From a virus (taxonomy: Duplodnaviria; Heunggongvirae; Uroviricota; Caudoviricetes), in IMG/VR virus record IMGVR_UViG_2547132281_000013, positions 1-21,103 of that record: a DNA stretch of 21,103 bases; one strand, given 5' to 3'. The notes under the pieces were generated by a model. It had not been told where the DNA came from. It worked only from the letters and a program-made list of their open reading frames with translations, and did not search any database. Made by a program: the position numbers and the translations under genes. Below, piece after piece: positions 1-21,103 of the stretch. Numbering within the stretch: position 1 is the stretch's first letter; each line of letters begins with the position of its first letter.

Positions 1-852
1 GTGATTGCTTTACTACTGATTCCCATTCTTGTTAGCGGCTACATTTTAGTAGTCGCTAATTTATATCATTACTATCAATTGCATCGATACGATGGCCAAC
101 TTTTGTATATAAAAGTTGCAGCTCATGGAACAATGAGTGTTGTTTTTGTGATTTTAGCAGCAGTAGTAGTGAAATATTTCTTTCCTAATTTTCACCCAAT
201 AGGAATGCTTTCAGATATTCTTAATGTCAAGAAAATAATAAATGGTAATAAAGCTGAAACATGGCTTGCTTTGATTTCATTATCATCAATTATATTTTCT
301 TTAATTTGGGTGGCTTTAGTTTGGTTAAAAAATATGTTTTTTGGTTTCTTTTGTGAAAAGAAACATCATGAAAACATCTTTCATGCTAAGAAACTTAGAG
401 TATTAAGAAAAACAATTTCTAACTCAACTTTGGATAGTATGCTTTTAGATGCATTAGAAAGCAGTCCTAAAGAACCGATTCTAATAACCTTATCTTCACG
501 GAAAGTTTATGTTGGTATAGTTAATGGAATTCAAGAACCAACAGAAAGCGAAGCGCCAAATAGTTATATATCAATTTTCCCTATTATGTCAGGCTATAGA
601 GATAAAGATACTCTTTCCATCACCTTTACGAATTCATATCCATCAGAAGTACTAGTGAGTTCAGCTATTACAATGGACTCCCAAAAAAGGCATAAAGTGA
701 AAAATATGGATATAATATTTCGTGCTGATGAAATTTCTCATCTTTCATGGTTCGATTTTGAACTATTTGAACAAGTCAATGATTCGATGAAGCACGATAC
801 CATTGACTTGCGAAGTGAGACTTACTCAGGGGAAACTAGCGAAAATTTTTAG
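1..852 (+). CDS. hypothetical polytopic membrane protein, AT-rich cargo gene; 5' end may extend beyond the window
   Basis: Open frame from base 1 (GTG) to 852. Three N-terminal hydrophobic segments (LLLIPILVSGYILVVANL, VVFVILAAVVV, LALISLSSIIFSLIWVALVWL) followed by a soluble domain of about 170 aa. Markedly AT-rich compared with the adjacent integrase gene. Converges on and overlaps the int 3' end by 17 bp. No family recognised. Confidence 0.45.
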   Translation: MIALLLIPILVSGYILVVANLYHYYQLHRYDGQLLYIKVAAHGTMSVVFVILAAVVVKYFFPNFHPIGMLSDILNVKKIINGNKAETWLALISLSSIIFSLIWVALVWLKNMFFGFFCEKKHHENIFHAKKLRVLRKTISNSTLDSMLLDALESSPKEPILITLSSRKVYVGIVNGIQEPTESEAPNSYISIFPIMSGYRDKDTLSITFTNSYPSEVLVSSAITMDSQKRHKVKNMDIIFRADEISHLSWFDFELFEQVNDSMKHDTIDLRSETYSGETSENF

Positions 853-2044
853 TAATTTCAGGTTTCGCTAAAATTTCAGCATGAGGTACACACACCCAAT
901 CGATATGATTTTTAGTATAAATTTTTGTAGATTTGGCGTCGCTGTGTGCCATGCGGCCTTGCGGATCTATTCCCTGCTGATCGAAAAGGTGTGCCGCCAG
1001 CGCACGGATTTCGTGGAAGGTTGGTCTTTCTTCCATGGGTACATTGTCAAATAGTCTCAACCGATCACGAATTGCGGAAAACGATCTACTTAAATAATCT
1101 GGGGCAACTTGTGTCGGATGTGAAACCTCTTTGCTTCGTTTAACTTGGCGTTCTGGGATCCTGTGAACGACAAACGGACTTGCCACATTATCTCTGCTAT
1201 CGTCAATTATCCGTTTCAACTCTTCACCAATCGGTATTGCAACGTGTGATGCCTCTTTTTTTTGTACTTTCTGCCTATGGATATATAGTGTCCCATAAAT
1301 ACCGTTTTTTGGCTGTTCTAACCATACGCACCCGCAGATGCCGTCTTTAGGTTCGCGAATTGAGTAACGGATTCGCGATACTTCGAGTCGTGCATGTGTA
1401 GTTTGCAATGCTAGATCCATTGCTGTTCTTAACCATGGTGCAGCGGCCTGCCTGATAGCTATAAAATGCTCGAGTGACAGGCGCCGTCTTTTCTTCTCAT
1501 CAGTCCTACGCATTTTTTTTCTGATGGCCGGGTTATCCAGCATTAGTGATTCATCGACCGCATAAGAGAACAACTTTTTAAGAAAGCTGACCTTTCTGTT
1601 CTGCACATTTGCGGATGCGCTGGCATGATATTTGTTGATGTAGGTATTAACGTGTTCAAGTTCGATATCGCATGCCGGAACATTTACGAAAAACGCTTTT
1701 ACGCGTAGAGCGTCATTTTTCCAGTCATCTAAGGTACTCTGGGAAGGACGTTCGTCTTCGATAATCCGGGTCATTATGTGATCAACATGTTCAGCAAATG
1801 GTTTTGCTTCTCCGATAACACCGCCAGATTCTCTAATAAGATTTTCTACTGATGGAGATAATTCTGGTCTCATCCTCAGGTTGTACTCTCTGGCGATTGC
1901 AATAGCTATTGCCCTATCCTTACCTATATTTTTCTTCTTTCCGGTAATAAGTGTGAATTTATAAACACCTCGATCTTTATCAAAAATCAGATAATCAGGA
2001 AGATGTCTGTATTCTTTTTTACGTGGCCTTGCCGCCATGGTCAC
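836..2044 (-). CDS. int: tyrosine-type site-specific recombinase, lambda-family phage integrase
   Basis: 402-aa ORF. The C-terminal region carries the catalytic signature of tyrosine recombinases (PTFHEIRALAAHLF ... AHSDAKSTKIYTKNH, with the HxxR box and terminal Tyr), and the overall layout resembles lambda Int. It sits immediately downstream of an excisionase-like gene with start/stop overlap. Confidence 0.85.
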   Translation of the reverse strand: MTMAARPRKKEYRHLPDYLIFDKDRGVYKFTLITGKKKNIGKDRAIAIAIAREYNLRMRPELSPSVENLIRESGGVIGEAKPFAEHVDHIMTRIIEDERPSQSTLDDWKNDALRVKAFFVNVPACDIELEHVNTYINKYHASASANVQNRKVSFLKKLFSYAVDESLMLDNPAIRKKMRRTDEKKRRRLSLEHFIAIRQAAAPWLRTAMDLALQTTHARLEVSRIRYSIREPKDGICGCVWLEQPKNGIYGTLYIHRQKVQKKEASHVAIPIGEELKRIIDDSRDNVASPFVVHRIPERQVKRSKEVSHPTQVAPDYLSRSFSAIRDRLRLFDNVPMEERPTFHEIRALAAHLFDQQGIDPQGRMAHSDAKSTKIYTKNHIDWVCVPHAEILAKPEITKNFR

Positions 2045-2295
2045 CCCTCGTTTATTAACTTGCGAACAGCTTGACTAACCATTGAGTCGACTCCCCATTT
2101 TTCTGTTTCGCAGACAAAAACAGAACCGTCCACGATGCGTCCCATGAGTAGACCGTTCTCGACCCAACGTTTTATCGTTCGGTTGTCAGGAATTGAGCCA
2201 TTAGAGAATTCACGGCGTCCCCATTGGCTCGCTTTCATTAGTTTTGCCATGGCTGTTTCTCCACTTAGCCCGCTGCACTCGGGCAGTAATATCAA
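2041..2295 (-). CDS. xis: excisionase-like small DNA-binding protein
   Basis: Small ORF directly upstream of int, with its stop overlapping the int start. Basic/aromatic composition typical of Xis-type proteins (KRWVENGLLMGRIVDGSVFVCETE). The more likely start is the internal ATG at 2250 (MAKLMK...), which has a GGAG about 8 nt upstream; the maximal ORF is reported. Confidence 0.5.
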   Translation of the reverse strand: MILLPECSGLSGETAMAKLMKASQWGRREFSNGSIPDNRTIKRWVENGLLMGRIVDGSVFVCETEKWGVDSMVSQAVRKLINEG

Positions 2296-2311
2296 ATTCC
2301 AGTCCTGATAA

Positions 2312-2470
2312 TTAATTTTGTTCTCTGGTTGCTACCTGTTTTATTGGCCTGATGCTGTCCAGGATAAGACGGCGACGCATGTTTGGCGCACCCCAACGGT
2401 AACCAGTCTTTTTGTCGTAGGATTCACAACGTCCGGCAACCCAGGACGTTTCAGTGGAATGTAATTTCAT
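2312..2470 (-). CDS. small hypothetical protein, 52 aa (below the ORF-track cutoff)
   Basis: Hand translation of the minus strand: MKLHSTETSWVAGRCESYDKKTGYRWGAPNMRRRLILDSIRPIKQVATREQN. It fills the gap between xis and the DUF551-like gene in the same leftward operon. Shine-Dalgarno is weak. Confidence 0.25.
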   Translation of the reverse strand: MKLHSTETSWVAGRCESYDKKTGYRWGAPNMRRRLILDSIRPIKQVATREQN

Positions 2471-2525
2471 CCGCTTTTCACCGTCTCGGGTGAGATAACA
2501 ATTCCTGTATGAGTTTTTATCACGC

Positions 2526-2888
2526 TCATTTCTTAGTCTCCGGTGCTTTCGGCATTACTGCCCAGTGAGTGATATTGACGTTTTCAAGGTCCCCGACCTG
2601 AAATGTCCACTGCCATTCTCCGGTTTCTTTTTGCCCCCATGTGTACCAGAGAGAACGCCAGCCAATCAGCCAGCCTTCTCCACTAGCATCAAATAACAGA
2701 ACACTTTCATTTGCTGGTGGCAGTTCAGCTGACACTGGTATTATTTTGTTTTCCAGTGCCGCACATTTAGCTTCAAGCGCGTTGAATTTACGTACCAGGT
2801 ACTCAGCATTTGTTTCGTTCACTTTCAGATCTCGCGGTACACATTTCCCGCGAAGAAACCCTTCCATTTCGAAAACATTCATGCGCAT
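2526..2888 (-). CDS. DUF551/Ea22-like prophage early protein
   Basis: 120-aa ORF with a Trp-rich C-terminus (GWRSLWYTWGQKETGEWQWTF...ITHWAVMP) resembling the DUF551 domain of lambdoid early-left proteins. Assigned from memory of the motif, not by search. Confidence 0.4.
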   Translation of the reverse strand: MRMNVFEMEGFLRGKCVPRDLKVNETNAEYLVRKFNALEAKCAALENKIIPVSAELPPANESVLLFDASGEGWLIGWRSLWYTWGQKETGEWQWTFQVGDLENVNITHWAVMPKAPETKK

Positions 2889-3414
2889 TTGCGTAACTCC
2901 GATAACTCGTTAAAACGTTCCATAAACATCCCGTAGGCCTGGCCCGGTGCCAGTGGAATCACGTTGAACATCTCTGTTGCCGGGATGCCTTCCAGTACAG
3001 GCCAGAAAGAGCCATCATCAAGCCCGAGATCGCGGCGTTCGGTTGCCAGCATGATGAGATCGGCATATTTCACAGGCGTGCTCATAACCGGGGTAACCCG
3101 TATTTCTCACGGATTACAGCGTCTATTTTTTCTTCCATCCGTTTATAGTCAGGAAGAAGGCGTTTCAGTGGCGCCGGGATGTCCTGGCAATACGCTTCTG
3201 TTGCATCATGCATTAACGCTTCAAAAGCAAATTCCTGCGGTACCAGTTGGCTGCAAAGCACCGCATGTTGGGCGACGCTGTAGAAATGTGAAAGATGTCC
3301 TGCAAAGCGACAGATATTTGAAAGAGAAACCGCGATATCGTTAATAACGATGTCGTCTTTATTTATCCTGTCATAATAAAAATGCTTCCCGGAAAAAGTT
3401 TTAATAAATGACAT
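2879..3414 (-). pseudogene. yfdR: HD-domain 5'-nucleotidase-like gene (YfdR-like) split by a frameshift at a homopolymer
   Basis: Two adjacent minus-strand ORFs: 3082-3414 (MSFIKTF...REKYGLPRL, with the His and HD motifs AGHLSH and LMHDATEAY) and 2879-3085 (MSTPVKYADL...). They overlap at the tract CCGGGG (plus 3088-3093). Inserting one G/C restores a single 178-aa frame (...GLPPVMSTPVKY...). The likely start is the ATG at 3414, which has GGAG 8 nt upstream. Confidence 0.6.
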
Positions 3415-3507
3415 TTTGTTCTCCACGTATATGCGCTGCACCGCGCTGAATTCTGGTAAAAGGAAGCCCTCACCATCCGGCGATTATTGAGTCAATTACG
3501 TTTCCAT

Positions 3508-3529
3508 AAATGCCCCCGCAGGGGCATTT
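3508..3529 (-). terminator. perfect 9-bp GC-rich hairpin between yfdQ-like and yfdR-like genes (attenuator or weak terminator)
   Basis: AAATGCCCC-CGCA-GGGGCATTT. The U-tract on the minus transcript is only partial (AUUUAU). Confidence 0.3.
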
Positions 3530-3541
3530 GCAGTAATGAAA

Positions 3542-4366
3542 TCAGGCGGTGAAAGTACCAATAAAGGTTTCTACTTTGCTGTCCTTGAATTTCTCAACAA
3601 GCAGATCACGAAATTCGTTAGCCATTTCTTCCTGCACTGCTTCCAGCTGAATAATGCGCAGAACCAGTACAGGACGATCGCCAGTGATAATGCTGAGGCG
3701 TAATTTAAACGGACGTTCTTTCAGGCCTTCAAACGGAACGCATTTAAATTCAAATGCCACAGGCATAATATCTTTGGTCTTCGCTTCGACAGACTCCATC
3801 AGGGAGCGTTTGCCGCTGAAGTCATTGTCTTCAAAATCAGCGGTCTGGTTTGCTTCAATCGTGATTTTACGGACTGCCGCAGCCGCTTTTGTTGCCTGAA
3901 TGGCATCACCATTAGCATCAAAGCCCACAAGGTAGTCGGCCCAGTCTTCGATCCATTCTGCCAGTGACTTCTGGGAGTTACGCTCGCCGTTAACAGACAA
4001 CAGAGCAGAGAACGGTGCTGTCTTTTTCAGTTTGAGAGTGGCAGTGTTATCTGCGTGACCTGGCTCATCAATAGTACCCAGGTTAAGCACACTGACGGCA
4101 CGCATATTATCGGCATCGATAAAGCAGCGGGTGCCTTCATCTGCAAGATCTTTAGAATAACGGGTAAAGTCATCGATGCTGGCAGTGGAAAGCGCACCAC
4201 GGAAACGGAAACGATTTAAATTAAATTTTTCCAGATCATGAATGCGGAAATTCTCAGGCAATGCCACAGCATCGGCACCAATCTTACTGATAATTTCATT
4301 AACACCCTGAGCAGAAATAAGGGCATGGATTTGATTAATTGCGGTTACGTCTAAGTTCTGAGACAT
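3542..4366 (-). CDS. yfdQ: YfdQ-like prophage protein (DUF2303 family)
   Basis: 274-aa ORF with GAGGA 7 nt upstream of the ATG. Length and sequence are recalled as matching CPS-53 YfdQ; assigned from memory. Confidence 0.55.
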
Positions 4367-4431
4367 AATAAGTCCTCACTATATAAAGATATTCAGTGAT
4401 GAGATAAATAATCAGTTTATTAAGAACGATA

Positions 4432-4794
4432 TTAACGACCTGCTGCGCGGAGTTTTCCGTCAGGTTCACCGGCAAGAGTCAGTAATTGTCCCTGGTCTTC
4501 CTGCAGAATAGTCAGGCGACCACCGCGATCGACATACATTGGCGTTTCGGTGGTGTCTTCTTCGGAAATTTTCCCGCGGTTAGTCGGGCGAACATATGAG
4601 AGTTTGTGTTTGATTTTCACACGGTTCTCATCAAACGGTTCGATTTCCAGATTGAGTGAGACCTTCCCTTTGGTTTTCGTGTTCATCACACCGGAAGCGA
4701 CTTCACTGAGAACTGCGCCGATTTTGGTTTCAAATACGCCGCCGTCCAGCTCCCCGATAAATGCCTGCACATCAGTACTGCGTTCGCTAGCCAT
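4432..4794 (-). CDS. yfdP: YfdP-like prophage protein
   Basis: Within ORF 4432-5112 the coding-like part begins at the internal ATG at 4794 (MASERSTDVQAFIGELDGG..., 120 aa), which has GAGGAG 9 nt upstream. The upstream extension is Arg/Cys-rich and not protein-like. Confidence 0.5.
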   Translation of the reverse strand: MASERSTDVQAFIGELDGGVFETKIGAVLSEVASGVMNTKTKGKVSLNLEIEPFDENRVKIKHKLSYVRPTNRGKISEEDTTETPMYVDRGGRLTILQEDQGQLLTLAGEPDGKLRAAGR

Positions 4795-4930
4795 TTTGCT
4801 GCTCCTCATCATATCGACCCTGCAAGGCCGATTAGTTTCTCCACAAAACAGAGAAGAACACCTGCGGTGGCAGCCGCCCGGATGGATTGGGTTATGAGCC
4901 CGTCGTCCGGTGATGCTCTTCTCTGTTTTG

Positions 4931-4977
4931 TAAAAAGAGCGGTACCAGCCGGAAGCAAGGGTACAAACTGGTACCGC
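4931..4977 (-). terminator. tL-like hairpin followed by a T-run on the minus strand
   Basis: 10-bp perfect inverted repeat GCGGTACCAG / CTGGTACCGC (4939-4948 and 4968-4977) with a 19-nt loop. On the minus transcript it is followed immediately by UCUUUUUA. Confidence 0.35.
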
Positions 4978-5194
4978 CAGGACTACACACAGCATAAAGT
5001 TGTGGTGCCGGGTGCCTCCCGGTGCCTGGCGAAGGTTGCACACCAGACGGGTGGGTATCCACAGAAGGTCGACTGTCAGCCTCAACCTTAACCCGCGTGC
5101 GCTGAGCCGCATTCACCACAACGCTAAGGATTCTCTCTGGTTGAAAATACTTAGCTGTTATGTGCCTGCTTTTAGCCACATCAGGCGAGGTGGA

Positions 5195-5248
5195 CCTGGT
5201 TATTCCCCAACAACAAGGATTCGGTTAATCTGGTTATCCCCAACAACG
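5195..5248 (+). repeat. imperfect direct repeat (CTGGTTAT[T]CCCCAACAAC, two copies) just upstream of ORF 5263
   Basis: Copies at about 5195-5215 and 5230-5248, ending 15 bp before the RBS (AAGGAAAAG) of the 144-aa ORF. Confidence 0.4.
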
Positions 5249-5262
5249 CAAAAGGAAAAGAA

Positions 5263-5697
5263 ATGTCCGGTAATATCTACACGCTGTACAAATCCCACTG
5301 TGAAAATGTTGGAAAGTATCGGGGCATTGAAATCAGTGGGGTAGTGTCATCAGTCGAAATAAGCAGAGTGGAATCAAGGGCAACATTACTTACTCTTCTG
5401 GACCTTGTCTTACATGAGCACCGGAAGAAATTCGGCACTCCCTATAATCAGTTGAATGGGAAAAAGGCTCTGGTTCACCTTATTCTGATGAAGCATCACT
5501 GGATGCCAAAACAGATTAATGAGATGAAATTCGATGAACTTCTTCTTTCAATTCAGGATGAACTCACACTTGATAAAATAAGCGTAACCGCCCAGAAATT
5601 TTTAGATTATCGAGACTGGAGATCACAAATTCATCACTTTGATGATTTTGACGAAAATGAATGGGAGCCTAATTTGTCTGCACAATATCTAAAGTAA
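5263..5697 (+). CDS. hypothetical protein, 144 aa; moron-like gene antisense to the leftward early operon
   Basis: ATG with AAGGAAAAG RBS. No transmembrane segment and no recognised domain. Its 3' end overlaps the convergent small ORF at 5669-5875 by 29 bp. Confidence 0.45.
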   Translation: MSGNIYTLYKSHCENVGKYRGIEISGVVSSVEISRVESRATLLTLLDLVLHEHRKKFGTPYNQLNGKKALVHLILMKHHWMPKQINEMKFDELLLSIQDELTLDKISVTAQKFLDYRDWRSQIHHFDDFDENEWEPNLSAQYLK

Positions 5698-5875
5698 CAT
5701 CCTGTGATAAAACCGTGATTTCCTGATCCAGTTTTTTTAAGGAGTCTATTGTTTCCTGTCGATAAGACAGCACTTCACGAAGCTGGTTTATAGCTGCCAG
5801 CTTCTTTGTCATCCACTCGTAAATTTCCTCATTTGTGTATCCGGGCGCGACGATTTTTGGTTCTTTTTTGTGCAT
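5669..5875 (-). CDS. small hypothetical protein, 68 aa; first gene of the leftward (PL-like) operon
   Basis: The ORF track begins at a TTG, but the likely start is the ATG at 5875 (MHKKEPKIV...), which has GAGGAGG 7 nt upstream. Not Arg-rich, so not an obvious N-type antiterminator. Confidence 0.4.
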   Translation of the reverse strand: MHKKEPKIVAPGYTNEEIYEWMTKKLAAINQLREVLSYRQETIDSLKKLDQEITVLSQDVTLDIVQTN

Positions 5876-5935
5876 TTCACACCTCCTCAAGTTATCAGTT
5901 ACTTGTTGATGGGGACCAGATTGTTAAAGAGCTAA

Positions 5936-5956
5936 GCGCCCGAAAGGGCGTTTTTT
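5936..5956 (+). terminator. putative rho-independent terminator on the plus strand
   Basis: GCGCCC-GAAA-GGGCG followed by TTTTTT. Confidence 0.4.
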
Positions 5957-6025
5957 GTTGCTAACGAATCATCCTGGACTTCATATGCCTCAGGCGGCTA
6001 CTTCGTGGGCGTCCTGCCTGTTCTT

Positions 6026-6062
6026 TGTTTCGTTTGGGTACATTATGTATCTCAAGGGTACA
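6026..6062. promoter_or_regulatory. OL-like operator pair
   Basis: TGTTT-N7-GTACA (6026-6042) and TGTAT-N7-GTACA (6046-6062). The GGGTACATT motif occurs twice. Same half-site family as the cI/cro intergenic operators. Confidence 0.45.
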
Positions 6063-6073
6063 TTGTCAAGTAT

Positions 6074-6096
6074 AAAAAAACCTGCCGAAGCAGGTT
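6074..6096 (-). terminator. rho-independent terminator downstream of the repressor gene
   Basis: Minus-strand stem AACCTGC-TTCG-GCAGGTT followed by a run of seven T; lies 13 bp past the cI stop. Confidence 0.5.
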
Positions 6097-6108
6097 CATA
6101 GACATTGA

Positions 6109-6783
6109 TTAGGCTTTGATTTTGTATCTTCTTGGTTTTCCTGAGAAAATCACTGTACCAATTATAGAGCAATTACCGTTGATCTTAATGTAAGGCTCAG
6201 GCCAATTTGGGTTTAACGCTTTGAGATAACGCTGTGTCCCATCTTCTATCAACCTTTTGAAGGTGGTTTCACCTGTATCGTGCATCAATGCAATAACATC
6301 GTCACCGTGGCAGGCAGGTACTTCAGGATCGACAAAAATCATGTCTCCCGGGCGGTACTCATCAATCATTGAATCACCTATCACCCGCAAGATATAAGTC
6401 ATTTCCCCACAGGGTACAGGGCAGGGATACGTTTCTGCTGTGCTCAAATCAACCTCAGAATATCCAACTTCTTTCCATGCTCCGGCCTGTACCCATGATA
6501 TGACAGGGACTAATGTGATTTGTTTATTAGTGATTGAAACATCAGGTTTTTTTGTGATGTTCGTTGTCTGGTGTTCTTGATCGAGCCATCCGATAGGCAG
6601 GTCGAAACATTTTTCGATGTGTCGTGCCATGCTGTCACCGATATTTTTAGTAGCACCATCTCCCATAAACCTGCTGGTCTGGGTTGGCTCGCGATCAATC
6701 ATAGTGGCAAAGGAAGAATTCCCGCCAACACCATCTCTCAGTTTTCTGGCGTTAGACCGCCGGATGTCATGGATTGTTTTCAT
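6109..6783 (-). CDS. cI: CI-like prophage repressor (N-terminal HTH, C-terminal S24 LexA-type autopeptidase)
   Basis: 224 aa. The C-terminal domain carries the S24 catalytic Ser (RVIGDSM) and a downstream Lys (TTFKRL). Divergent from a Cro-like gene across an operator-bearing intergenic region. Confidence 0.85.
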   Translation of the reverse strand: MKTIHDIRRSNARKLRDGVGGNSSFATMIDREPTQTSRFMGDGATKNIGDSMARHIEKCFDLPIGWLDQEHQTTNITKKPDVSITNKQITLVPVISWVQAGAWKEVGYSEVDLSTAETYPCPVPCGEMTYILRVIGDSMIDEYRPGDMIFVDPEVPACHGDDVIALMHDTGETTFKRLIEDGTQRYLKALNPNWPEPYIKINGNCSIIGTVIFSGKPRRYKIKA

Positions 6784-6873
6784 AACGAAATTAAAACCCT
6801 TGTACCGTTAAGGTACAAGTGTCTTGAAGGTTCATTTCAATCATGTAATATGTACACCGGAGGTACATATTGT
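6784..6873. promoter_or_regulatory. divergent immunity control region (OR/PR/PRM-like)
   Basis: Two dyad operators TGTAC-N7-GTACA at 6801-6817 (within the 21-bp palindrome CTTGTACCGTTAAGGTACAAG) and 6851-6867. Candidate rightward promoter: -35 TTGAAG (6824-6829), 16-bp spacer, -10 TAATAT (6846-6851). The second operator overlaps the -10 and the start site. Confidence 0.55.
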
Positions 6874-7074
6874 ATGAAAGCGTATTGGGACTCTTTAACC
6901 AAAGAACAGCAGGGCGAGTTGGCCGGAAAAGTTGGCTCAACACCTGGCTACTTACGGCTGGTTTTCAATGGCTATAAAAAAGCCAGTTTTGTGCTGGCTA
7001 AAAAACTTGAGCAATGCACGTCAGGTGCAATTACGAAATCTGACTTAAGACCGGATATCTATCCGAAAGATTAG
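6874..7074 (+). CDS. cro: Cro-like HTH regulator
   Basis: 66 aa from the ATG at 6874, with GGAGG 10 nt upstream. The longer ORF-track frame (6571-) runs antisense into cI and is rejected. Confidence 0.6.
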   Translation: MKAYWDSLTKEQQGELAGKVGSTPGYLRLVFNGYKKASFVLAKKLEQCTSGAITKSDLRPDIYPKD

Positions 7075-7105
7075 CAGAACACCTTCAATTTTTAACCACA
7101 GAACG

Positions 7106-7672
7106 ATGAGGCTAACCGTGGGTAAGCATCACTGGAAAATAGAAAAACAGCCTGAGTGGTACGTGAAAGCTGTCAGAAAAACTATCGCAGCGTTGCCGGG
7201 GGGTTACGCTGAAGCAGCTGACTGGCTGGATGTAACAGAGAACGCATTATTTAACCGCCTTCGTGCCGATGGCGATCAGATTTTCCCGCTGGGATGGGCA
7301 ATGATTTTGCAACGTGCTGGTGGAACTCACTTCATTGCTGACGCTGTGGCGCAGTCTGCAAATGGCGTCTTTGTGTCTCTTCCTGATGTCGAGGATGTGG
7401 ACAACGCCGATATCAACCAACGCCTGCTGGAGGTCATTGAACAGATCGGCAGTTATTCAAAACAGATTCGTTCAGCAATTGAAGACGGTGTAGTGGAACC
7501 GCATGAGAAGACAGCAATTAACGACGAGCTGTACCTCTCAATTTCGAAGCTGCAGGAGCATGCAGCACTGGTCTACAAAATTTTTAGTACATTCAAGAGA
7601 AGTAATGACGCCCGCGAGTGTGCAGCTCCGGGCGCCGTGGCGTGTCGTGACTGTGGAGAAACTAACGCATGA
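7106..7672 (+). CDS. YmfL-like putative early regulator (CII-position gene)
   Basis: 188 aa, immediately downstream of cro. Length and position match e14 ymfL from memory. An alternative GTG start at 7121 has a better SD. Confidence 0.45.
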
Positions 7673-8007: not shown

Positions 8008-8027
8008 AGGTCGGTCATGAGCACTAA
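7848..8027 (+). CDS. small DUF4222-like protein, 59 aa, TTG start, in an alternative frame
   Basis: AAGGAG at 7833-7838, 9 nt upstream of TTG 7848. Product [58 protein letters not shown] is protein-like and recalled as resembling DUF4222 prophage proteins. Confidence 0.4.
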
Positions 8028-10400: not shown

Positions 10401-10419
10401 ATCCTCACTTTACAACGGG

Positions 10420-13561: not shown

Positions 13562-13770
13562 CCAATCAGCTGGTGCAGACGGTAAGGGGGTATATCCGCG
13601 AATGCCTGCAATGGATGATTGATGACGGCGTGGTGTCCCGTATTGATCTGGATATCCGCCGCACCGGGATTAATGAACTGGGTAACAGTATCACTCTCTG
13701 GCGTCGTGACGGACCGGTAATGATTTCTTTTGATGATCTGTGGAGTGCGATAACGCATGGCGGACAGTGA
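13562..13770 (+). pseudogene. start-less C-terminal remnant of the gene preceding baseplate J (possibly gpW/gp25-like)
   Basis: Protein-like frame (...IRECLQWMIDDGVVSRIDLDIRRTGINELGNSITLWRRDGPVMISFDDLW...) ending in overlap with the baseplate J start. No credible start or RBS after the terL stop. Confidence 0.25.
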
Positions 13771-14815
13771 ATTTCAGCGCCCGACGCTGGCAGAAAATAT
13801 CAGTATGCTCCGTAACGATTTATTCGCCAGGCTGGACGTCAGCGACACGCTCCGGCGCATGGATGAAGACGTGCGGGCAAAGGTGTATGCGGCGGCGCTG
13901 CATACGGTTTACGGTTACATCGATTATCTGGCAATGAACATGCTGCCTGACCTGTGCGATGAGTCCTGGCTGGCGCGACATGCTGCGATGAAACGGTGTC
14001 CGCGCAAGGGAGCCACGGCTGCCAGTGGGTATATGCGCTGGGAAGGTGTCAGCGATGGCCTGAAGGTGACCGCCGGGAGTGTTATTCAGCGCGATGACCT
14101 GGTGCAGTACACGACAACTGACGATGCAACCAGCTCCGGTGGTGTCCTGCGCGTGCCGATCGCCTGCTCAAGTGCAGGTGCGGTCGGTAACGCTGACGAC
14201 GGTACGGCATTAATCCTGGTCACGCCGGTGAATGGTCTGCCGTCTTCCGGTGTGGCTGACACCCTGACAGGCGGATTTGATACTGAAGAGCTGGAAACGT
14301 GGCGCGCCCGCGTCATTGAGCGGTATTACTGGACGCCGCAGGGCGGGGCTGACGGGGACTATGTTGTCTGGGCTAAAGAAGTGCCCGGCATTACCCGCGC
14401 ATGGACATACCGACACTGGATGGGAACGGGGACTGTCGGTGTGATGATTGCCAGCAGCGACCTGATTAACCCCATTCCGGAAGAATCAACGGAAACGGCG
14501 GCAAGACAACACATTGAGCCACTGGCCCCGGTGGCAGGCTCTGATTTGTATGTATTCAGGCCGGTGGCGCACAAAGTGGATTTTCATATCCGCGTGACTC
14601 CGGACACACCGGAAATACGGGATGCCATCACCGCGGAGTTGCGTTCATTCCTGCTGCGTGATGGTTATCCGCAGGGAGAGCTGAAGGTATCGCGTATCAG
14701 TGAAGCGATTTCCGGTGCGAACGGGGAATACAGCCATCAGTTGCTTGCTCCGGCGGACAATATCTCCATTGCAAAAAATGAACTGGCGGTTCTGGGGACG
14801 ATTTCATGGACGTGA
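13757..14815 (+). CDS. baseplate assembly protein J-like (P2 gpJ family)
   Basis: 352 aa. Position immediately upstream of a gpI-like and tail-fibre gene with overlapping start/stop, and overall similarity to the e14 jayE-type protein. Confidence 0.75.
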
Positions 14816-15390
14816 CAAACGATGATTACATCCGTCTGTTGTCGGCACTGTTGCCCCCTGGTCCGGCGTGGTCAGCCAGCGATCCGGCGATTGCCGGTGC
14901 GGCACCGTCATTAACCCGTGCTCATCAGCGTGCGGATGCCCTGATGCGGGAGCTGGATCCGCGCACCACCACCGAACTGATAAACCGCTGGGAGCGTCTG
15001 TGCGGCCTGCCGGATGAATGTATTCCGGCAGGGACGCAGACCCTTCGCCAGCGTCAGCAACGGCTGGATGCGAAGGTTAACCTGGCGGGCGGCATCAATG
15101 AGGATTTTTACCTTGCGCAGCTTGCTGCCCTGGGCAGACCAGATGCCACCATCACGCGATACGACAAAAGCACGTTCACCTGCTCATCGGCCTGTACTGA
15201 CGCGGTGAATGCGCCGGAATGGCGGTATTACTGGCAGGTCAATATGCCAGCTGCCACCAACACCACCTGGATGACATGTGGCGATCCCTGCGATTCCGCA
15301 CTGCGTATCTGGGGGGACACCGTTATCGAGTGCGTGCTTAACAAACTCTGCCCGTCGCATACCTACGTAATTTTTAAATATCCGGAGTAA
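14806..15390 (+). CDS. P2 gpI-like tail protein (YmfQ-like)
   Basis: 194 aa, overlapping the gpJ-like stop. Conserved N-terminal LLPPGPAW motif. Length matches e14 YmfQ from memory. Confidence 0.7.
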
Positions 15391-15393
15391 TCC

Positions 15394-16320
15394 ATGCATC
15401 GTATAGACACGAAAACCGCGCAAAAGGATAAGTTCGGCGCGGGTAAGAACGGTTTTACCCGTGGTAACCCCCAGACAGGCACGCCTGCCACCGATCTGGA
15501 TGATGACTACTTTGACATGTTGCAGGAAGAGCTCTGCAGCGTGGTGGAGGCATCCGGTGCCAGCCTGGAGAAGGGGCGGCATGACCAGCTGCTTACCGCG
15601 CTTCGTGCGCTGCTGTTAAGTCGCAAAAATCCGTTTGGCGATATCAAATCGGACGGCACGGTGAAAACGGCTCTTCAAAACCTTGGTTTGGGAGATACAA
15701 GCGGATACGTGGGACGCCGGCTGAGTACCTGGGCTTTCGCGTCATCAGGTACGTATACCCCATCACTAGAAACAAAACGGATCAGGGTCACAATAACGGG
15801 CGGCGGTGGCGGAGGGGGGGGCTGCCAGGCTATATCCAGTAACGAAACGTTTTTCGGTGCTGGCGGTGGGGCCGGAGGGACAGTAATCACCATACTGACC
15901 CCGACACAGAATAGTTATCCTGTCACTATCGGCGCAGGTGGGGCCGGCGGCGTTGGTGCGACGAACGGCCTCAAGGGCGGTGATAGCTCGTTCGGATCGG
16001 TAATAGCCCCTGGTGGTGAAGGCGGCGGAAAATCAGGAGTCACAAACACAAACGGCGGTAACGGAGGCGTACCGAATATTGGCGATATCCGCATCACTGG
16101 TGGAGATGGAGGCGACGGTCAGTCCGGGAATATCGGCGTCAGCGGTGAAGGCGGTGCATCGTACTGGGGAGGCGGTGGACGCGCAGGCTCTGGCGGTGGC
16201 GTTAGAGGCAGGGCATTTGGTTCAGGCGGAGGTGGTGCATACGATGCAGGTTATAGCGGAACCAGTATGACGGGCGGGAAAGGTGCTGCTGGGGTTTGTA
16301 TTATCGAGGAGTTTGCATAA
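15394..16320 (+). CDS. side tail fibre protein (constant N-terminus plus Gly-rich variable C-terminus)
   Basis: N-terminus [47 protein letters not shown]... is the conserved Mu/e14-type fibre N-terminal region. The C-terminus is made of GGxGG repeats. The gene crosses the invertible-segment boundary at 15683-15684. Confidence 0.8.
15671..15696. other. Din-family (gix/hix/pix-like) recombination site, left boundary of the invertible segment
   Basis: CTCTTCAAAACC-TT-GGTTTGGGAGAT is an imperfect 26-bp dyad resembling hix/gix, and is an inverted copy of the site at 17503-17528. Confidence 0.6.
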
Positions 16321-16730
16321 TGAATGCGTCATATGCAGTTATTGAAAATGGGATGGTTGTGAATGTCATTGTCTGGGATGGCGAGGATGAATTCACTGTG
16401 CCGGATAATCTGCAGCTCATTAATATTTCTGATATCAGTGAGCAGCCCGGAATCGGCTGGGCGTATTCAGACGGGATATTTACTGCGCCGCTCCCTCCGG
16501 AACGTTCTCATGATGAACTGGTAGCTGACGCTGAACAGAAAAAACAGTCGCTGATAGACGCAGCAATGGCCAATATCAGCGTGATTCAGTTAAAGCTGCA
16601 GGCCGGGCGCAAACTGACGCAAGAAGAAACTACCAGACTTAACGTTGTGCTGGATTACATTGACGCGGTGACAGCAACTGATACCAGCACCGCGCCAGAT
16701 GTCATCTGGCCTGAACTGCCGGAGGCGTAG
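16320..16730 (+). CDS. tfa: tail fibre assembly protein
   Basis: Start ATG overlaps the stf stop (TAATG), with GAGGAG 9 nt upstream. C-terminal ...LDYIDAVTATDTSTAPDVIWPELP is the conserved tail-fibre-assembly motif. Confidence 0.8.
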   Translation: MNASYAVIENGMVVNVIVWDGEDEFTVPDNLQLINISDISEQPGIGWAYSDGIFTAPLPPERSHDELVADAEQKKQSLIDAAMANISVIQLKLQAGRKLTQEETTRLNVVLDYIDAVTATDTSTAPDVIWPELPEA

Positions 16731-17142
16731 GCCATTCAATATCTGGCGCACTGGAAGTATCGACCAGCTCCAGTGCGTCCAGATAATCCAGCCACAAATT
16801 ATATTGCGCCAGTTCCTCACCTTTCAGACGACCAATAGCCGCTTTACCAGCCCATTGTTTACTGTTCATATAATCGTTGGCCTGATTAATCAATTGCTGC
16901 TTTTCCAGTTCGGCTGCAGCAATCTGTTCCTCATGTGTTGGTGGTGGAATTTCAGACCATGCAGGAAAACCATTTTCTCCAGCGATACGGATTTTTCCTT
17001 TCGGCGGTAATCCGGAAAACTCAATATACGCTTGCTCATCAACTTCAACAGCATCATCTGGCCATGAGTCAGCTTGAGTGTAATCCTCTTTCATTTCCAG
17101 TGGATAGAAAGAGTTTGTAGTCGCGGAATATATGTAATTCAT
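16702..17142 (-). CDS. tfa: tail fibre assembly protein, alternative copy
   Basis: 146 aa. C-terminal ...LWLDYLDALELVDTSSAPDIEWPTPP. Its 3' end converges on and overlaps the other tfa. Confidence 0.8.
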   Translation of the reverse strand: MNYIYSATTNSFYPLEMKEDYTQADSWPDDAVEVDEQAYIEFSGLPPKGKIRIAGENGFPAWSEIPPPTHEEQIAAAELEKQQLINQANDYMNSKQWAGKAAIGRLKGEELAQYNLWLDYLDALELVDTSSAPDIEWPTPPAVQAR

Positions 17143-17163
17143 TTTTCACTCCATATAGCTAAA

Positions 17164-17514
17164 TTAACAGCCTAACGCTAAAAATGAAGCGCCGAGACCT
17201 GGAGTACTGGCTCTGGATATAAATTTAACCGGGTCGGAACTAAAAGCTGCGCAGGCAATATAACCAACAGACCCGCTATCTGGTGTGTAGTCTTGTGAGA
17301 CCAAAACACGCAGACATCGGTTTGGAAATGCAATCGGAAAATGGGTTACCACATCCTGTGCAATGCCTGGTGCGCCGATTGAGCCCCACTGAAGAATAAA
17401 ACCAGATGGTAATTTTTGATATCCAGTACCTGAAACAGAAAGCGTGAAGCTACCCATATCAGGTATCTGATTCGTCCCTGTCCCCACATTCCTTTTTGCC
17501 GCTTCTCCCAAACC
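17164..17514 (-). CDS. alternative tail-fibre C-terminal segment, start-less; expressed only after inversion
   Basis: The frame begins exactly at the crossover core (GGT TTG GGA GAA = GLGE...), matching the ...QNLGLGD... junction in stf. The first 14 ORF-track codons (17515-17556) lie outside the segment and are not coding. Confidence 0.6.
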
Positions 17515-17528
17515 AACGTTTATGAAAA
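17503..17528. other. Din-family recombination site, right boundary of the invertible segment
   Basis: TTCTCCCAAACC-AA-CGTTTATGAAAA, about 55 bp upstream of the pin remnant. Shares GGTTTGGGAGA with the left site in inverted orientation. Confidence 0.6.
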
Positions 17529-17582
17529 TGCAGAAATAACAAGCAAATGGCATCATTCCTGCTTTTGTCAGGGAGATCTATC

Positions 17583-17711
17583 ATGCTTATTGGTTATGTA
17601 CGCGTATCAACAAATGACCAGAATACCGATCTACAACGCAATGCGCTGAACTGTGCAGGGTGTGAGCTGATTTTTGAAGACAAGATAAGCGGTACAAAGT
17701 CCGAGACCTAG
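17583..17711 (+). pseudogene. pin: DNA invertase (Pin/Gin/Hin serine recombinase) remnant, N-terminal 42 codons
   Basis: MLIGYVRVSTNDQNTDLQRNALNCAGCELIFEDKISGTKSE matches the conserved N-terminus of Din invertases, including the catalytic Ser in VRVSTNDQ. A stop follows codon 42 and downstream sequence is unrelated. Confidence 0.8.
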
Positions 17712-17748
17712 GGCTGACACTGCTGTTCTTGATGCAAATTAAAGGATT

Positions 17749-17776
17749 TAATAGTGAGTAGCGGCCTTACTAATGT
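17749..17776. terminator. perfect 12-bp stem / 4-nt loop hairpin; candidate bidirectional terminator
   Basis: TAGCGGCCTTAC-TAAT-GTAAGGCCGCTA with AT-rich flanks on both sides. Lies 31 bp past the stop of the minus-strand DUF262/DUF1524 gene. Confidence 0.5.
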
Positions 17777-17806
17777 AAGGCCGCTATAATCATTTTATTA
17801 ATTGCA

Positions 17807-19696
17807 TTAATCGTGTTTTGGCCATACTTTCAATGCAATTTCCCCCAACTTTTTACCCCGCTCCAGGATTTCATCCTCATCCCATTTATCCTTAACTATA
17901 AGTGGAATGTTCAGTCGTAGATTGGTGTGGACGATGAGAGCATCACGTTTTTTCAGAAATACAGCATTCTGAACAGAACGGTTTACGCTAAGGTTAAGCA
18001 AAGTTAGATTTCCCAACGTAGCTATCGCTTGTTGCCGTTTCCTTACCAGTAGCTGTTCAGGGGTAAGATCGGTTCCAGACAGAACAATTTGGTTCAATAC
18101 CGTAGCATCTGAATTTGTCACCATATGACCATTTTCGAGAGGCCAACAGGAAAACCAACTTTGAGGCATAAGATGATCGATATCGAGATTGGAAAGATTT
18201 GGACCATCAGGCTTCTCTGTCTTCACTTGGCGACAAAGTTCTCTTTCAAGTTCCGTTAACATTGAGCGCATTTTCGGTGCGTCGAGCCTGCCAGGATAAA
18301 GTGGAGCATTGATGCAAGCATTGAGAAATTCTGAGTCACCAGGCCAACGTGAGGCTTCGCCATTTAAGCTATTGAGGATATTACGTAACTCAACACTGGA
18401 AATTTCCGTTTTAGACAAGTGCCGCAATACATTCATAAATACATTGTTGTAATTCTTTGGCGTCAGGCCACATACGGCTCTTCGTACTACGTAGGAGACA
18501 AGATCATTATACATGGCTGCTTTCTCATCATCAGCGATGTTAGCTATCGAAATGAACAAAGCAAGCGGATAAAGTGTCGTCACATCATAGTCTGCGATGC
18601 GATATCCAAAGTGTGAGATGGGGGTTGTGCCAAAACCATCAACCAATTCTTTATATTGTGATGCATATTGTTTGAGGCGCTTTACTTGCAGATCTGCTCG
18701 TTGTGAAGACAAGTCCTTACTTACATAATCACGATACTCATTGTAAAGGCGAGACAGATCAATTTCACGCTGCCTTTCTGATTGCAATGTCGCATGTACT
18801 AGCCACTCCATGCGTGGTTTATTAATACGTCCACGGCGTTGCTTTTCCGACCAGTATTTATCTTCAAAGCTCTTCCACTCATTTTCATATAATTCAATAG
18901 CATTAATATTTTCATGCTCAGCGCACATAAAGATATAGTTGCGAATAAGATCCGTGGCATGAAGTTCCGCCCCTCGCCCATTTAATGTTTCAAAAATTAT
19001 TTGGGCATCATCTTCAGCTTCGAGAAATATGCTTACCAGTTTCAGATCTGTTAAGACAGCCTCAATTAGAGCTACAGCATTTTCTTGTGGTGAGTGGTTT
19101 TCTATTTTAATCCATTTTATAAAGGCTTCAGTAAAAAAACATAATGCTTCTAGTGATGGCGGGTGATTAAAATGCTTACGCAACGTACCATGCTGCGTGA
19201 AACTATCAGAGAATACGTCCCGGAGATCGTCAATATTTTCAACATTAAAACTTTGAATAAAATGAGTTTGATCCCGAAAAGTTGGCCATAGTTTGAAGCG
19301 TTCTACTTCTTTATTTCGCATTGTGTCTTCGTTTGAGTTTTTCAGGCAAGGCGAAATGAGAGCCTCTAAGCTGAAAAGATCCGTAGCACGTAATGCTAAT
19401 CGGATGGATGCCAGAACATATTGAAGAGTGGTCAATCGTTGCTGACCATCAATAATATGTATGGAATCTACACCTAATAATCCTTTTTTTGATTGAGGTT
19501 CCAGTACAACCGCACCAAGGAAATGGGGAGTTGGTTTTGTACCCGAGAGCCGGGATTGTGCTTTCTCTAGGATATCCTCCAGTAGAGCTGACCATTGGTC
19601 TTGCTGAGTCCATACATAGGCACGTTGATAGAATGGAACACAGTATTGTCGGCGGTCTTGAAAAAGTTGTTGGACAGTTAGCGTCTCGGATTTCAT
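17807..19696 (-). CDS. DUF262/DUF1524 protein, GmrSD-like candidate type IV (modification-dependent) restriction endonuclease
   Basis: N-terminal DUF262 hallmark ...SIHIIDGQQRLTTLQYVLASI... (DGQQR). C-terminal DUF1524-type His-Me finger motifs ...LDIDHLMPQSW... and ...LGNLTLLNLSVNRSVQN.... The likely start is the ATG at 19696 (MKSETLTVQQLF...) with AGGT upstream; the maximal ORF extends to 19756 but has no RBS. Confidence 0.75.
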   Translation of the reverse strand: MKSETLTVQQLFQDRRQYCVPFYQRAYVWTQQDQWSALLEDILEKAQSRLSGTKPTPHFLGAVVLEPQSKKGLLGVDSIHIIDGQQRLTTLQYVLASIRLALRATDLFSLEALISPCLKNSNEDTMRNKEVERFKLWPTFRDQTHFIQSFNVENIDDLRDVFSDSFTQHGTLRKHFNHPPSLEALCFFTEAFIKWIKIENHSPQENAVALIEAVLTDLKLVSIFLEAEDDAQIIFETLNGRGAELHATDLIRNYIFMCAEHENINAIELYENEWKSFEDKYWSEKQRRGRINKPRMEWLVHATLQSERQREIDLSRLYNEYRDYVSKDLSSQRADLQVKRLKQYASQYKELVDGFGTTPISHFGYRIADYDVTTLYPLALFISIANIADDEKAAMYNDLVSYVVRRAVCGLTPKNYNNVFMNVLRHLSKTEISSVELRNILNSLNGEASRWPGDSEFLNACINAPLYPGRLDAPKMRSMLTELERELCRQVKTEKPDGPNLSNLDIDHLMPQSWFSCWPLENGHMVTNSDATVLNQIVLSGTDLTPEQLLVRKRQQAIATLGNLTLLNLSVNRSVQNAVFLKKRDALIVHTNLRLNIPLIVKDKWDEDEILERGKKLGEIALKVWPKHD

Positions 19697-19874
19697 GGTA
19701 TACCTGTAAGCGACATTGTACAAAAGTGAGGAGTTAATCTGATTTAGAACAATCATTTTATTTTGCTATGATACAACGTATTTGTTACCGGTTAAGCAAA
19801 AAACGCGTCTGAACGCTGACGTTTTAGGGCTTTACTGGTTATTCTTTCTTATCTCTTCATCATTGGATTTGCCC

Positions 19875-20780
19875 CTATATTTCCAGACATCTGTTATCAC
19901 TTAACCCATTACAAGCCCGCTGCCGCAGATATTCCCGTGGCGAGCGATAACCCAGCGCACTATGCGGATGCCATTCGTTATAATGCTCGAACGCCTCTGC
20001 AAGGTTCTTTGCTGCCGTTAACCCGTCTGGTTTGGGCATGATACTGATGTAGTCACGCTTTATCGTTTTCACGAAGCTCTCTGCTATTCCGTTACTCTCC
20101 GGACTCCGCACCGCCGTGTTCTTCGGTTCAAGTCCCAACATCCGGGCGAACTGGCGTGTTTCATTAGCCCGGTAGCATGAACCATTATCCGTCAGCCACT
20201 CCACTGGAGACGACGGAAGATCGTTGCCGAAGCGGCGTTCCACCGCTCCCAGCATGACGTCCTGTACTGTTTCACTGTTGAAGCCGCCGGTAGTGACCGC
20301 CCAGTGCAGTGCCTCACGATCACAGCAGTCCAGCGCGAACGTGACACGCAGTCTCTCTCCGTTATCACAGCAGAACTCGAACCCGTCAGAGCACCATCGC
20401 TGATTGCTTTCTTTCACGGCCACTCTGCCTGTATGTGCCCGTTTCGATGGCGGTACAGCAGGTTTTCGCTCAAGCAACAGCGCATTCTGGCGCATGATCC
20501 GGTAAACACGTTTGGCATTGATCGCAGGCATACCATCAAGTTCTGCCTGTCTGCGAAGCAGCGCCCATACCCGACGATAACCATACGTGGGCAGCTCTCC
20601 GATAACATGGTGTATACGGAGAAGCACATCCGTATCATCAGTGTGACGACTGCGGCGGCCATCCATCCAGTCATCGGTTCGTCTGAGAATGACGTGCAAC
20701 TGCGCACGCGACACCCGGAGACAACGGCTGACTAAGCTTACTCCCCATCCCCGGGCAATAAGGGCGCGTGCGCTATCCAC
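19875..20780 (-). CDS. insD: IS2 transposase InsD (OrfB, DDE integrase domain)
   Basis: 301 aa, GTG-initiated frame [28 protein letters not shown]... recalled as IS2 InsD. In vivo it is expressed mainly as an InsCD fusion by -1 frameshifting. Confidence 0.85.
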
Positions 20781-21103
20781 TTTTTTGCCCGTCCATATTC
20801 AACGGCTTCTTTGAGGAGTTCATTTTCCATCGTTTTCTTGCCGAGCAGGCGCTGGAGTTCTTTAATCTGCTTCATGGCGGCAGCAAGTTCAGAGGCAGGA
20901 ACAACCTGTTCTCCGGCGGCGACAGCAGTAAGACTTCCTTCCTGGTATTGCTTACGCCAGAGAAATAACTGGCTGGCTGCTACACCATGTTGCCGGGCAA
21001 CGAGGGAGACCGTCATCCCCGGTTCAAAGCTCTGCTGAACAATTGCGATCTTTTCCTGTGTGGTACGCCGTCTGCGTTTCTCCGGCCCTAAGACATCAAT
21101 CAT
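20738..21103 (-). CDS. insC: IS2 InsC (OrfA, HTH)
   Basis: 121 aa, [56 protein letters not shown].... Confidence 0.85.
20780..20786 (-). promoter_or_regulatory. programmed -1 ribosomal frameshift heptamer A AAA AAG (insC to insD)
   Basis: Minus-strand GCA AAA AAG TGG in the insC frame; a -1 slip reads AAA AAA GTG GAT AGC..., which is the insD frame. Confidence 0.7.

Follow-up and report, generated by a model that had tools for sequence, protein, structure and literature searches.

A defective prophage of the SfV–e14–CPS-53 lineage at the Escherichia coli proL locus, with a GmrSD restriction gene and a putative membrane-protein cassette in its accessory slots

Introduction

The stretch of DNA analysed here (hereafter the window) comprises the 21,103 nucleotides of the IMG/VR virus record IMGVR_UViG_2547132281_000013. 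A megablast search of 5,426 complete E. coli genomes identified it as E. coli prophage DNA. We interpret it as the interior of a defective prophage of about 22 kb, which belongs to the SfV/SfII/SfIV–e14–CPS-53 lineage, carries a tyrosine integrase of its own and lies at the tRNA gene proL next to yejM; we put the probability of this interpretation at roughly 0.88. The lineage is lambdoid in its regulation and pairs a head of the HK97 type with a contractile tail of the Mu type, whose fibre genes form an invertible cassette. An earlier reading made from the nucleotide letters (the sequence-only reading) had described the element as an e14-like mosaic with different cargo at both ends, and had proposed that such ends act as exchangeable defence hotspots. 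The present analysis started from an open reading frame (ORF) listing, a composition analysis and a tRNA scan; no tRNA was found inside the window by the scan, and no RNA family was found in it with Rfam.

Gene Order, Lineage and Integration Site

None of the 5,426 genomes contains at least 80% of the window at one place. The best match, NZ_CM143725.1 (L001), covers 71% of it at 99.9–100% identity. The reference loci were e14 of K-12 (L002), CPS-53 (L003) and a nearly intact, IntE-bearing, icd-integrated relative (L004). In BLASTN comparisons with e14, positions 4805–5193 matched ymfH at 89%, 5960–8250 matched the end of ymfJ with cohE, croE, ymfL, ymfM and oweE at 96.7%, 13295–13497 matched the start of aaaE at 95.6%, 14028–15695 matched jayE, ymfQ and stfP at 96%, and 17502–17704 matched the starts of stfE and pinE at 93.6%. 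The blocks share their order on the window and on e14, one of them being inverted inside the invertible segment, and the e14 modules amount to 96–97% nucleotide identity over 5.1 kb. Positions 2210–7000 and 16300–17400 of e14 had no DNA match in the window. In CPS-53, yfdS–yfdP correspond to 2535–4813 at 97% over 2.3 kb, and tfaS/yfdK/yfdL correspond to the tfa/stf' region at 16545–17521 with 87% identity; about 17% of the window aligns to this remnant.

Whole-prophage alignment with e14 and CPS-53 thus bears out the collinearity that had been proposed, and the main e14 blocks stand at 96.7% and 96%. The same order, int–xis–early left–cI–cro–ymfL/M–replication–packaging–baseplate J/gp48–stf–tfa–(inverted tfa'–stf')–pin, is also found against L004. 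Some of the genes named in that order are present in altered form: int and xis occupy the expected positions but are not those of e14, pin is a stump of 42 codons (17583–17711), and the terminase consists of TerS with a TerL cut to its N-terminal ~267 codons and fused to a gp46 fragment by a deletion. Among functional phages, Shigella SfIV, SfV and SfII come closest, with 96–97% identity over 23–38% of the window (SfIV, 97.3% over 38%). In SfV the annotated order is gp46–gp47(J)–gp48–stf–tfa–gtrV/B/A–int–xis–orf29..32 (the equivalents of yfdS..P)–cI.

The early-left genes resemble those of CPS-53, as had been noticed from the letters (97% for yfdS–yfdP). Because the yfdPQRS module is also present in SfV and in the icd-integrated L004, it is the norm of the lineage and not a special CPS-53 mosaic, and e14 of K-12 is a reduced form.

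The expectation of an integrated prophage with identifiable att sites was confirmed in flanking sequence. In L001, yejO/narP and yejM flank the element, which is bordered by a perfect 54-bp direct repeat (7500–7553 and 31554–31607 of that locus), made up of the 3' part of tRNA-Pro(GGG) plus 8 bp, with the intact tRNA in the yejM-side copy only. The flank of an independent assembly (L026) agrees; in L026 and in a further copy (L027), tRNA-Pro(GGG) and yejM follow just past the right end of the window, and the attL repeat recurs in four other proL prophages. Judged from these near-identical copies, the window misses some 450 bp between attL and position 1, among them the first gene of the left cassette, and another 770 bp or so between position 21103 and attR. 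It is cut short of both prophage ends, inside both accessory slots, which the sequence-only reading had not noted.

The integrase gene (836–2044, minus strand) encodes a tyrosine integrase with a lambda-type arm-binding domain (Pfam Arm-DNA-bind_1). It is specific for proL, shows 26% identity to IntE and is not an IntE orthologue; 109 of the 5,426 genomes contain an int of this type, always at one chromosomal place. The adjoining putative excisionase gene (2041–2250, minus strand) was assigned from its position and from weak similarity to XisE and TorI (16–23% identity, with the pattern W..R..S..P..T(I/L)(K/R)RW common to the alignment); its product gave no hidden Markov model match.

Accessory Slots Flanking the Attachment Site

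Neither lit nor mcrA, nor a homologue of either, is present in the window. Both slots that hold these genes in e14 are filled by others, as the sequence-only reading had it: a 283-aa protein predicted to lie in the membrane (1–852) and a GmrSD enzyme (17807–19696).

The gene in the right slot (17807–19696, minus strand) encodes a GmrSD enzyme in single-chain form, 629 aa long, which is a modification-dependent (type IV) restriction endonuclease. An N-terminal DUF262 domain (GmrSD_N, ParB-like NTPase, PF03235, E = 7.4e-34, full model) and a C-terminal DUF1524 His-Me/HNH domain (GmrSD_C, PF07510, E = 7.9e-20) were recognised with Pfam, and the PADLOC model mREase_IV matched over the full length with 1418 bits. 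The protein is identical at 621 of 629 positions to UTI89_C2960 (the "UT enzyme"), and it shares 93% of its residues with the GmrSD encoded in an icd prophage. According to He et al. 2015 (PMC4437046), SfII-like prophages encode APECO1_3911, Eco94GmrSD and the UTI89 enzyme directly downstream of tail-fibre genes, and these enzymes restrict T-even phages. D507-H508-N522, the catalytic residues established in Eco94GmrSD, are present at the aligned positions (UTI89_C2960 alignment, motif from PMC4437046). Given this near-identity, the enzyme should cut the glucosyl-hydroxymethylcytosine DNA of T-even phages; nucleoside triphosphate-stimulated cleavage of glucosylated and unglucosylated 5-hydroxymethylcytosine DNA (glc-5hmC and 5hmC), and with it T-even restriction, are predicted. 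By analogy with the UTI89 enzyme, T2 and T6 would be restricted and T4 would not. Compared with McrA of e14, it would perform the same class of task, type IV restriction, with another specificity. Both the allele and its position after the tail-fibre genes are already published (2015). A start at the in-frame ATG at 19756, 20 codons further upstream, would give 649 aa; the 629-aa form, which begins at the second ATG, is the one represented by the PADLOC model, the RefSeq annotation and the UTI89 protein.

The junction between the pin stump and the GmrSD gene is collinear in prophages at proL (the window), icd (L021) and ssrA (L022, UTI89), and in L021 the GmrSD gene occupies exactly the position of e14 mcrA. 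A junction common to three attachment sites points to one ancestral event that created it and to recombination that spread it. Other occupants of the right slot are mcrA in K-12 and an acyltransferase gene with a GIY-YIG protein gene in L004.

On the left, positions 1–852 of the window were found in 23 of the 109 genomes with this int type; in the others, homology ends within the 3' end of int, at 872–896 of the window. The ~135 bp beside attL are common to five proL prophages, which then differ wholly up to int and carry inserts of 1.0–3.8 kb. One of these slots (L007) holds an AbiLi-like ATPase with its partner and a DUF4760 protein, another (L005) a PDC-S31/DUF2971 protein, and further occupants in relatives are genes of no recognised kind. 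A cross-species survey of the integrase covered 17 loci, in which many ORFs are probably chromosomal flank, and the one clear match alone was used: in Enterobacter, a cyclase of a cyclic-oligonucleotide-based anti-phage signalling system (CBASS) with a 2TM effector lies beside a 90%-identical integrase. The 283-aa cassette was found beside the integrase relatives in none of the 17 loci. The left slot is therefore bounded, exchangeable and often occupied by defence genes. A same-slot hypothetical protein of 283 aa in L008, considered as a divergent homologue of the window protein, is unrelated despite its equal length.

The proposal of prophage ends as exchangeable defence hotspots is thus supported by the GmrSD gene in the right slot and by the varied occupants in relatives, but the left-slot occupant has no known function, so that within the window defence is shown for one of the two slots. 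On the circular phage genome, the interval from the tail-fibre genes to int forms one contiguous accessory region around attP, which integration splits into the two "ends" of the prophage; in SfV this attP-centred region carries the gtr serotype-conversion genes. Since related prophages carry different inserts between conserved borders, cassettes are probably swapped by homologous recombination through these borders. On the left, these would be the ~135 bp beside attL and the 3' end of int; on the right, the crossover site with the 5' stub of pin and the att-proximal DNA.

The Two-Gene Cassette of the Left Slot

The left-slot cargo of the window (1–852, plus strand; G+C content 34%) is the second gene of a two-gene cassette. 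The window begins exactly at this gene, and the first one (~66 aa) lies just upstream, at 7796–7996 of L001; both genes and a promoter-like site fall within 7554–8871 of that locus. For the 283-aa product, a member of phrog_3630, three long transmembrane helices are predicted, with an Sm-like beta-barrel towards the C-terminus. The protein gave no Pfam match above the cut-off and no NCBIfam match; a Pfam FPL hit was disregarded at 17.9 bits against a cut-off of 26.1. Its 229 homologues come from Enterobacterales and Vibrionaceae and are all annotated as "hypothetical". Strongly conserved motifs of the family include LHRYDGQLLYLK and SRKVYVGIVN...EPNE...MSGYRDKDTL, and K168, Y170, G172, E182 and R200 are invariant.

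Directly 5' of the 283-aa gene, a gene for a protein of 66–93 aa (phrog_5739) was present in all 10 contexts examined, with gaps of 0–116 nt; its product bears a weakly conserved motif, V..RGG...A..V. The pair phrog_5739 and phrog_3630 is thus a conserved two-gene accessory cassette. Besides E. coli proL, it occurs in another E. coli prophage, in the same slot of a Klebsiella prophage, in a P4-type island of Salmonella and Citrobacter beside an AAA ATPase and S8 peptidase pair, in a V. cholerae element, in a Serratia island, in an Erwinia prophage remnant and in a Photobacterium lambdoid prophage, where it precedes the lysis genes. In the Cronobacter phage phiES15 it lies between attP and int, and a P2-like Klebsiella phage carries it next to a SEFIR gene, in the interval from gpA/DinI to the portal gene. 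The convergent AAA-ATPase and Peptidase_S8 genes next to the cassette (6802–10263 in L015/L016) are possibly another accessory or defence module. The accessions of the cassette and its PHROG identifiers appear in no paper of the searched literature.

Deletions, Insertion Sequences and Decay

Two internal deletions shape the window. The first, at 8246–8251, leaves the replication gene with its first ~78 codons, which now abut the final part of the lysis module; 5.6 kb are missing relative to L001, and a GGGTA microhomology lies at the junction. Past the junction follow an Rz-like spanin remnant (8274–8492, phrog_1275) and the 3' part of a DUF6173 gene (8535–8798, minus strand), which is interrupted by an insertion sequence (IS). 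The second deletion, at 13494–13498, cuts TerL at codon ~267 and fuses it to what is left of baseplate gp46, its C-terminal part. In terms of L004, position 23096 is joined to 39463, and 16.4 kb of head and tail genes are missing. With the replication-to-lysis region and 16 kb of head and tail genes lost, the element cannot make virions. Still present are int, the putative xis, repressor and Cro genes of the e14 type, and accessory genes to either side of what was attP.

Two IS elements were absent from the sequence-only reading. The first, ISCro1 of the IS66 family (8799–11497, minus strand, 2699 bp), is 99.8% identical to the ISCro1 annotated in L004 and is inserted in the DUF6173 gene. It shows the features of its family, namely three ORFs, GTAAGCG-type termini (GTAAGCG.../...CGGTTAC) and an 8-bp target duplication, TCTTCTTC, at 8791–8798 and 11498–11505. 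The ORFs, all on the minus strand and all with IS66 Pfam domains, are tnpC (8829–10400, 523 aa), tnpB (10420–10767, 115 aa) and tnpA (10767–11444, 225 aa). The empty site is found in L001 and L027; the ISCro1 copy of L004 sits in another gene, that of DNA circularization. The second element is IS2 (19864–21103, minus strand; terminus TGGATTTGCCCC...), annotated as such in L001, with orfB at 19875–20780 and orfA at 20738–21103, both on the minus strand. The window ends about 90 bp short of its far end. IS2 is inserted between the GmrSD gene and a DinI-like pseudogene, and homology to UTI89 and L027 ends at 19863; copies without IS2 (L027, UTI89) run on into this pseudogene. L027 has both deletions and neither IS element, and thus represents the precursor state.

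L001 and the window are 99.9–100% alike in their flanks and differ in their internal deletions (16248–25064 in L001 versus 8251–15379 in the window). L001 keeps the replication-to-lysis genes and lacks TerS/TerL and J, while the window shows the reverse; separate decay of a fuller proL prophage explains both sets of deletions.

Weighing the Interpretations

Several findings weigh against the preferred interpretation. DNA alignment to K-12 e14 covers about 24% of the window, and the two elements have different int genes and att sites, so that "e14-like" denotes a family-level resemblance. In the right slot, IS2 lies 168 bp upstream of the GmrSD start codon (19697–19864) and could affect the promoter or the expression of the predicted enzyme. 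For the 283-aa protein, in which residues ~155–250 would form the candidate Sm-like (LSm/Hfq/WYL) fold, the structure model is of moderate confidence (predicted local distance difference test score, pLDDT, 69.7). The search of viral folds in BFVD returned no informative match for this protein, and no family of PADLOC-DB 2.0 matched it at E ≤ 0.01. A defence role of the left cassette is argued from its location alone.

For this cassette, a rival reading assumes no part in defence. It would instead serve a lysogenic-conversion or housekeeping-type membrane function, such as envelope modification or stress tolerance, or form a toxin–antitoxin-like addiction pair that stabilises the element. We give this reading even odds. 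It agrees with the lack of a match to any PADLOC model, with the O-antigen modification genes, rather than intracellular defence, that SfV carries beside attP, and with the fact that some other occupants of the slot are also of no recognised kind. Against it stand the repeated presence of the cassette at positions where sister elements have recognised defence genes, its low G+C content and its sporadic spread over Enterobacterales and Vibrionaceae on phages and islands. In the preferred interpretation, the cassette would most likely be a membrane-acting module for phage exclusion or abortive infection. More specifically, and tentatively, it may be an undescribed two-gene system of anti-phage defence or superinfection exclusion. 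The membrane protein, with its three predicted transmembrane helices and an Sm-like domain on the cytoplasmic side, possibly ring-forming and binding nucleic acid or a ligand, would be its effector. The two genes would travel together among defence hotspots in mobile elements that are not related to each other; these hotspots may include the attP–int slot of SfV-type phages and phiES15, the gpA–portal interval of P2-like phages, the pre-lysis moron slot of a lambdoid Photobacterium prophage, and P4-type islands.

The element could also be a variant of e14 proper, that is, the K-12 element integrated at icd by IntE with only its cargo exchanged, and the 96–97% identity of the immunity/early-right and jayE–ymfQ–stfP blocks in unchanged order would fit this. 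We regard it as very improbable. An e14 in the strict sense carries an IntE-type integrase and resides in icd, whereas here Int shares 26% of its residues with IntE and att is tRNA-Pro at proL. The flanks of L001, L026 and L027, near-identical copies at proL with the tRNA-Pro att repeat, refute that identity, and the early-left module, the packaging remnant and the deletion end-points are also unlike those of e14.

The defective prophage of the wider lineage is likewise preferred to an intact or inducible temperate phage able to make particles. Such a phage would account for the kept int, putative xis, repressor/cro pair and perfect att repeats, but it is next to impossible with Q, holin/endolysin, portal, capsid, sheath, tube, tape measure and baseplate hub missing by comparison with L004, the replication protein absent beyond its first ~78 codons, TerL truncated, and yfdR and other genes frameshifted. 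An assembly chimera or window artefact joining unrelated prophage pieces, for which the absence of a complete E. coli genome with at least 80% of the window at one place might speak, is equally improbable: it is refuted by L026, an independent assembly collinear with 2698–21103 of the window (18.4 kb) at 99.989% with both IS elements included, and by L027, the IS-free precursor, and the deletion-specific TerL' fusion protein is listed in 58 index blocks of the assembly collection, with an identical arrangement in the contigs read.

Other Genes of the Window

The early-left operon (2312–5119, minus strand) is of the SfV/CPS-53 type, as judged from its 97% nucleotide identity to CPS-53, the annotation of L001 (99.9% identical) and orf29–32 of SfV. 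It comprises, all on the minus strand, a frameshifted small gene (2312–2529), a yfdS-like gene (2526–2888), a frameshifted yfdR (2879–3441), yfdQ (3542–4366), yfdP (4432–4794, 120 aa) and a frameshifted ymfH-like gene (4809–5119). An ORF of 226 aa at 4432–5112 was rejected as a separate gene, being yfdP extended too far upstream.

Beside the repressor gene lies a moron-like pair (5263–5890) consisting of an ECs1072-family gene (5263–5697, plus strand; NCBIfam NF033230, E = 1e-45) and a 68-aa ORF (5669–5875, minus strand); the pair also matched phrog_5286. This interval between the early-left operon and the repressor is a third variable spot, occupied by ymfI/ymfJ in e14 and by another gene in L006, with nothing annotated in L005 and L007. 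A further cargo position in the same lineage is seen in L004 (17085–18496), where a KwaB-like (Kiwa) gene and its partner lie between Q and the lysis genes.

The region that follows is of the e14 type, with 96.7% nucleotide identity. It encodes the CohE/YmfK repressor (6109–6783, minus strand; Peptidase_S24), which would confer e14-type immunity, and CroE/YmfT (6874–7074, plus strand), followed in the early-right region by YmfL (7118–7672, plus strand; NCBIfam YmfL) and YmfM (7669–8007, plus strand). The oweE-like replication-gene stump with an HTH_36 domain (from 8017, plus strand) ends at the first deletion; weak CasR and PaaX matches on it were set aside as helix-turn-helix noise.

The packaging and baseplate remnant lies on the plus strand and comprises an HNH endonuclease (11730–12080; Pfam HNH), a P27-type TerS (12207–12701; Terminase_4), the N-terminal ATPase part of TerL (12698–13561; TerL_ATPase), cut by the second deletion, the C-terminal gp46 fragment (to 13770), a full-length Baseplate J (13757–14815; Baseplate_J, E = 3e-53) and YmfQ/gp48 (14806–15390); the last three (13494–15390) are the remnant of a Mu-type baseplate. 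J and YmfQ are 96% identical to e14 jayE/ymfQ, and the baseplate remnant also matched phrog_180. In the tail-fibre cassette, Stf (15394–16320) and Tfa (16320–16730) are encoded on the plus strand, and Tfa' (16702–17142) and the alternative Stf C-terminus (17164–17556) on the minus strand; Pfam Gly_rich_2 and Gp53-like_C, together with Caudo_TAP, are the domains recognised in the products of this cassette. Inverted crossover sites of 18 nt (15678–15695 and 17504–17521; inverted repeat I1, 94% complementary) bound a segment of 1.8 kb. The stump of the Pin-type serine invertase (plus strand; 93.6% to the start of pinE) gave a Resolvase Pfam match on its 42-aa product and is annotated in L001 as "recombinase, missing C-terminus". 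With its invertase truncated, the invertible segment lacks an invertase of its own.

Comparison with Known Systems

The window resembles e14 of K-12 in gene order and in being made defective by internal deletions. In both, the tail-fibre cassette is invertible and has a pin-type site, a gene for type IV restriction follows it, and further cargo separates attL from int. The two differ in integration site (icd versus proL), in cargo (mcrA with ymfD/ymfE/lit versus GmrSD with the membrane-protein cassette) and in deletion end-points. Unlike e14, the window keeps yfdS–P, HNH, TerS and full-length J and contains two IS elements, whereas pin is intact in e14 and truncated in the window.

SfV, SfIV and SfII show the identical order of gp46–47–48, tail fibre, tfa, cargo, attP, int, xis, yfdS/R/Q/P equivalents and cI. 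In contrast to the window element, they are complete phages with a different integrase and att site, and the gtrABV O-antigen glucosylation operon flanks their attP. CPS-53 (KpLE1) is a decayed remnant of the same lineage, related through the yfdS–yfdP and tfaS/yfdK/yfdL segments; it differs in its site (argW), its IntS and TorI, the gtr cargo (yfdGHI) flanking attP and the lack of an e14-type immunity region.

The ssrA prophage of UTI89 (UTI89_C2960) carries the same pin'–GmrSD–DinI' module (97% nucleotide and 99% protein identity), and in both the UTI89 and the Eco94GmrSD prophages the GmrSD gene directly follows a tail-fibre cassette of the same tail type. The UTI89 prophage, however, is largely intact, lies at ssrA and has a GIY-YIG protein and two hypothetical proteins encoded between GmrSD and att.

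Related mobile elements among the P2-like phages and among the P4-like satellites have hotspots at set positions, flanked by conserved borders, which diverse, interchangeable anti-phage systems fill. The left cassette itself is found at the gpA-to-portal hotspot of a P2-like Klebsiella phage. These hotspots belong to another phage lineage, whereas that of the window is the region flanking attP.

Conclusions

The idea of prophage accessory regions as interchangeable defence loci is already established, and the element described here is a further decayed member of a much-studied prophage lineage, in which the left cassette alone is a possible novelty. The element provides a worked example of how both "ends" of a prophage are one attP-centred accessory region with fixed borders. 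Type IV restriction enzymes, Abi-type systems, CBASS and O-antigen modification operons are interchangeable within these borders, and the pin'–GmrSD module has moved among prophages at three different attachment sites. The two-gene cassette is a practical lead, being small, widespread in Enterobacterales and Vibrionaceae, always located on mobile elements and easily tested.

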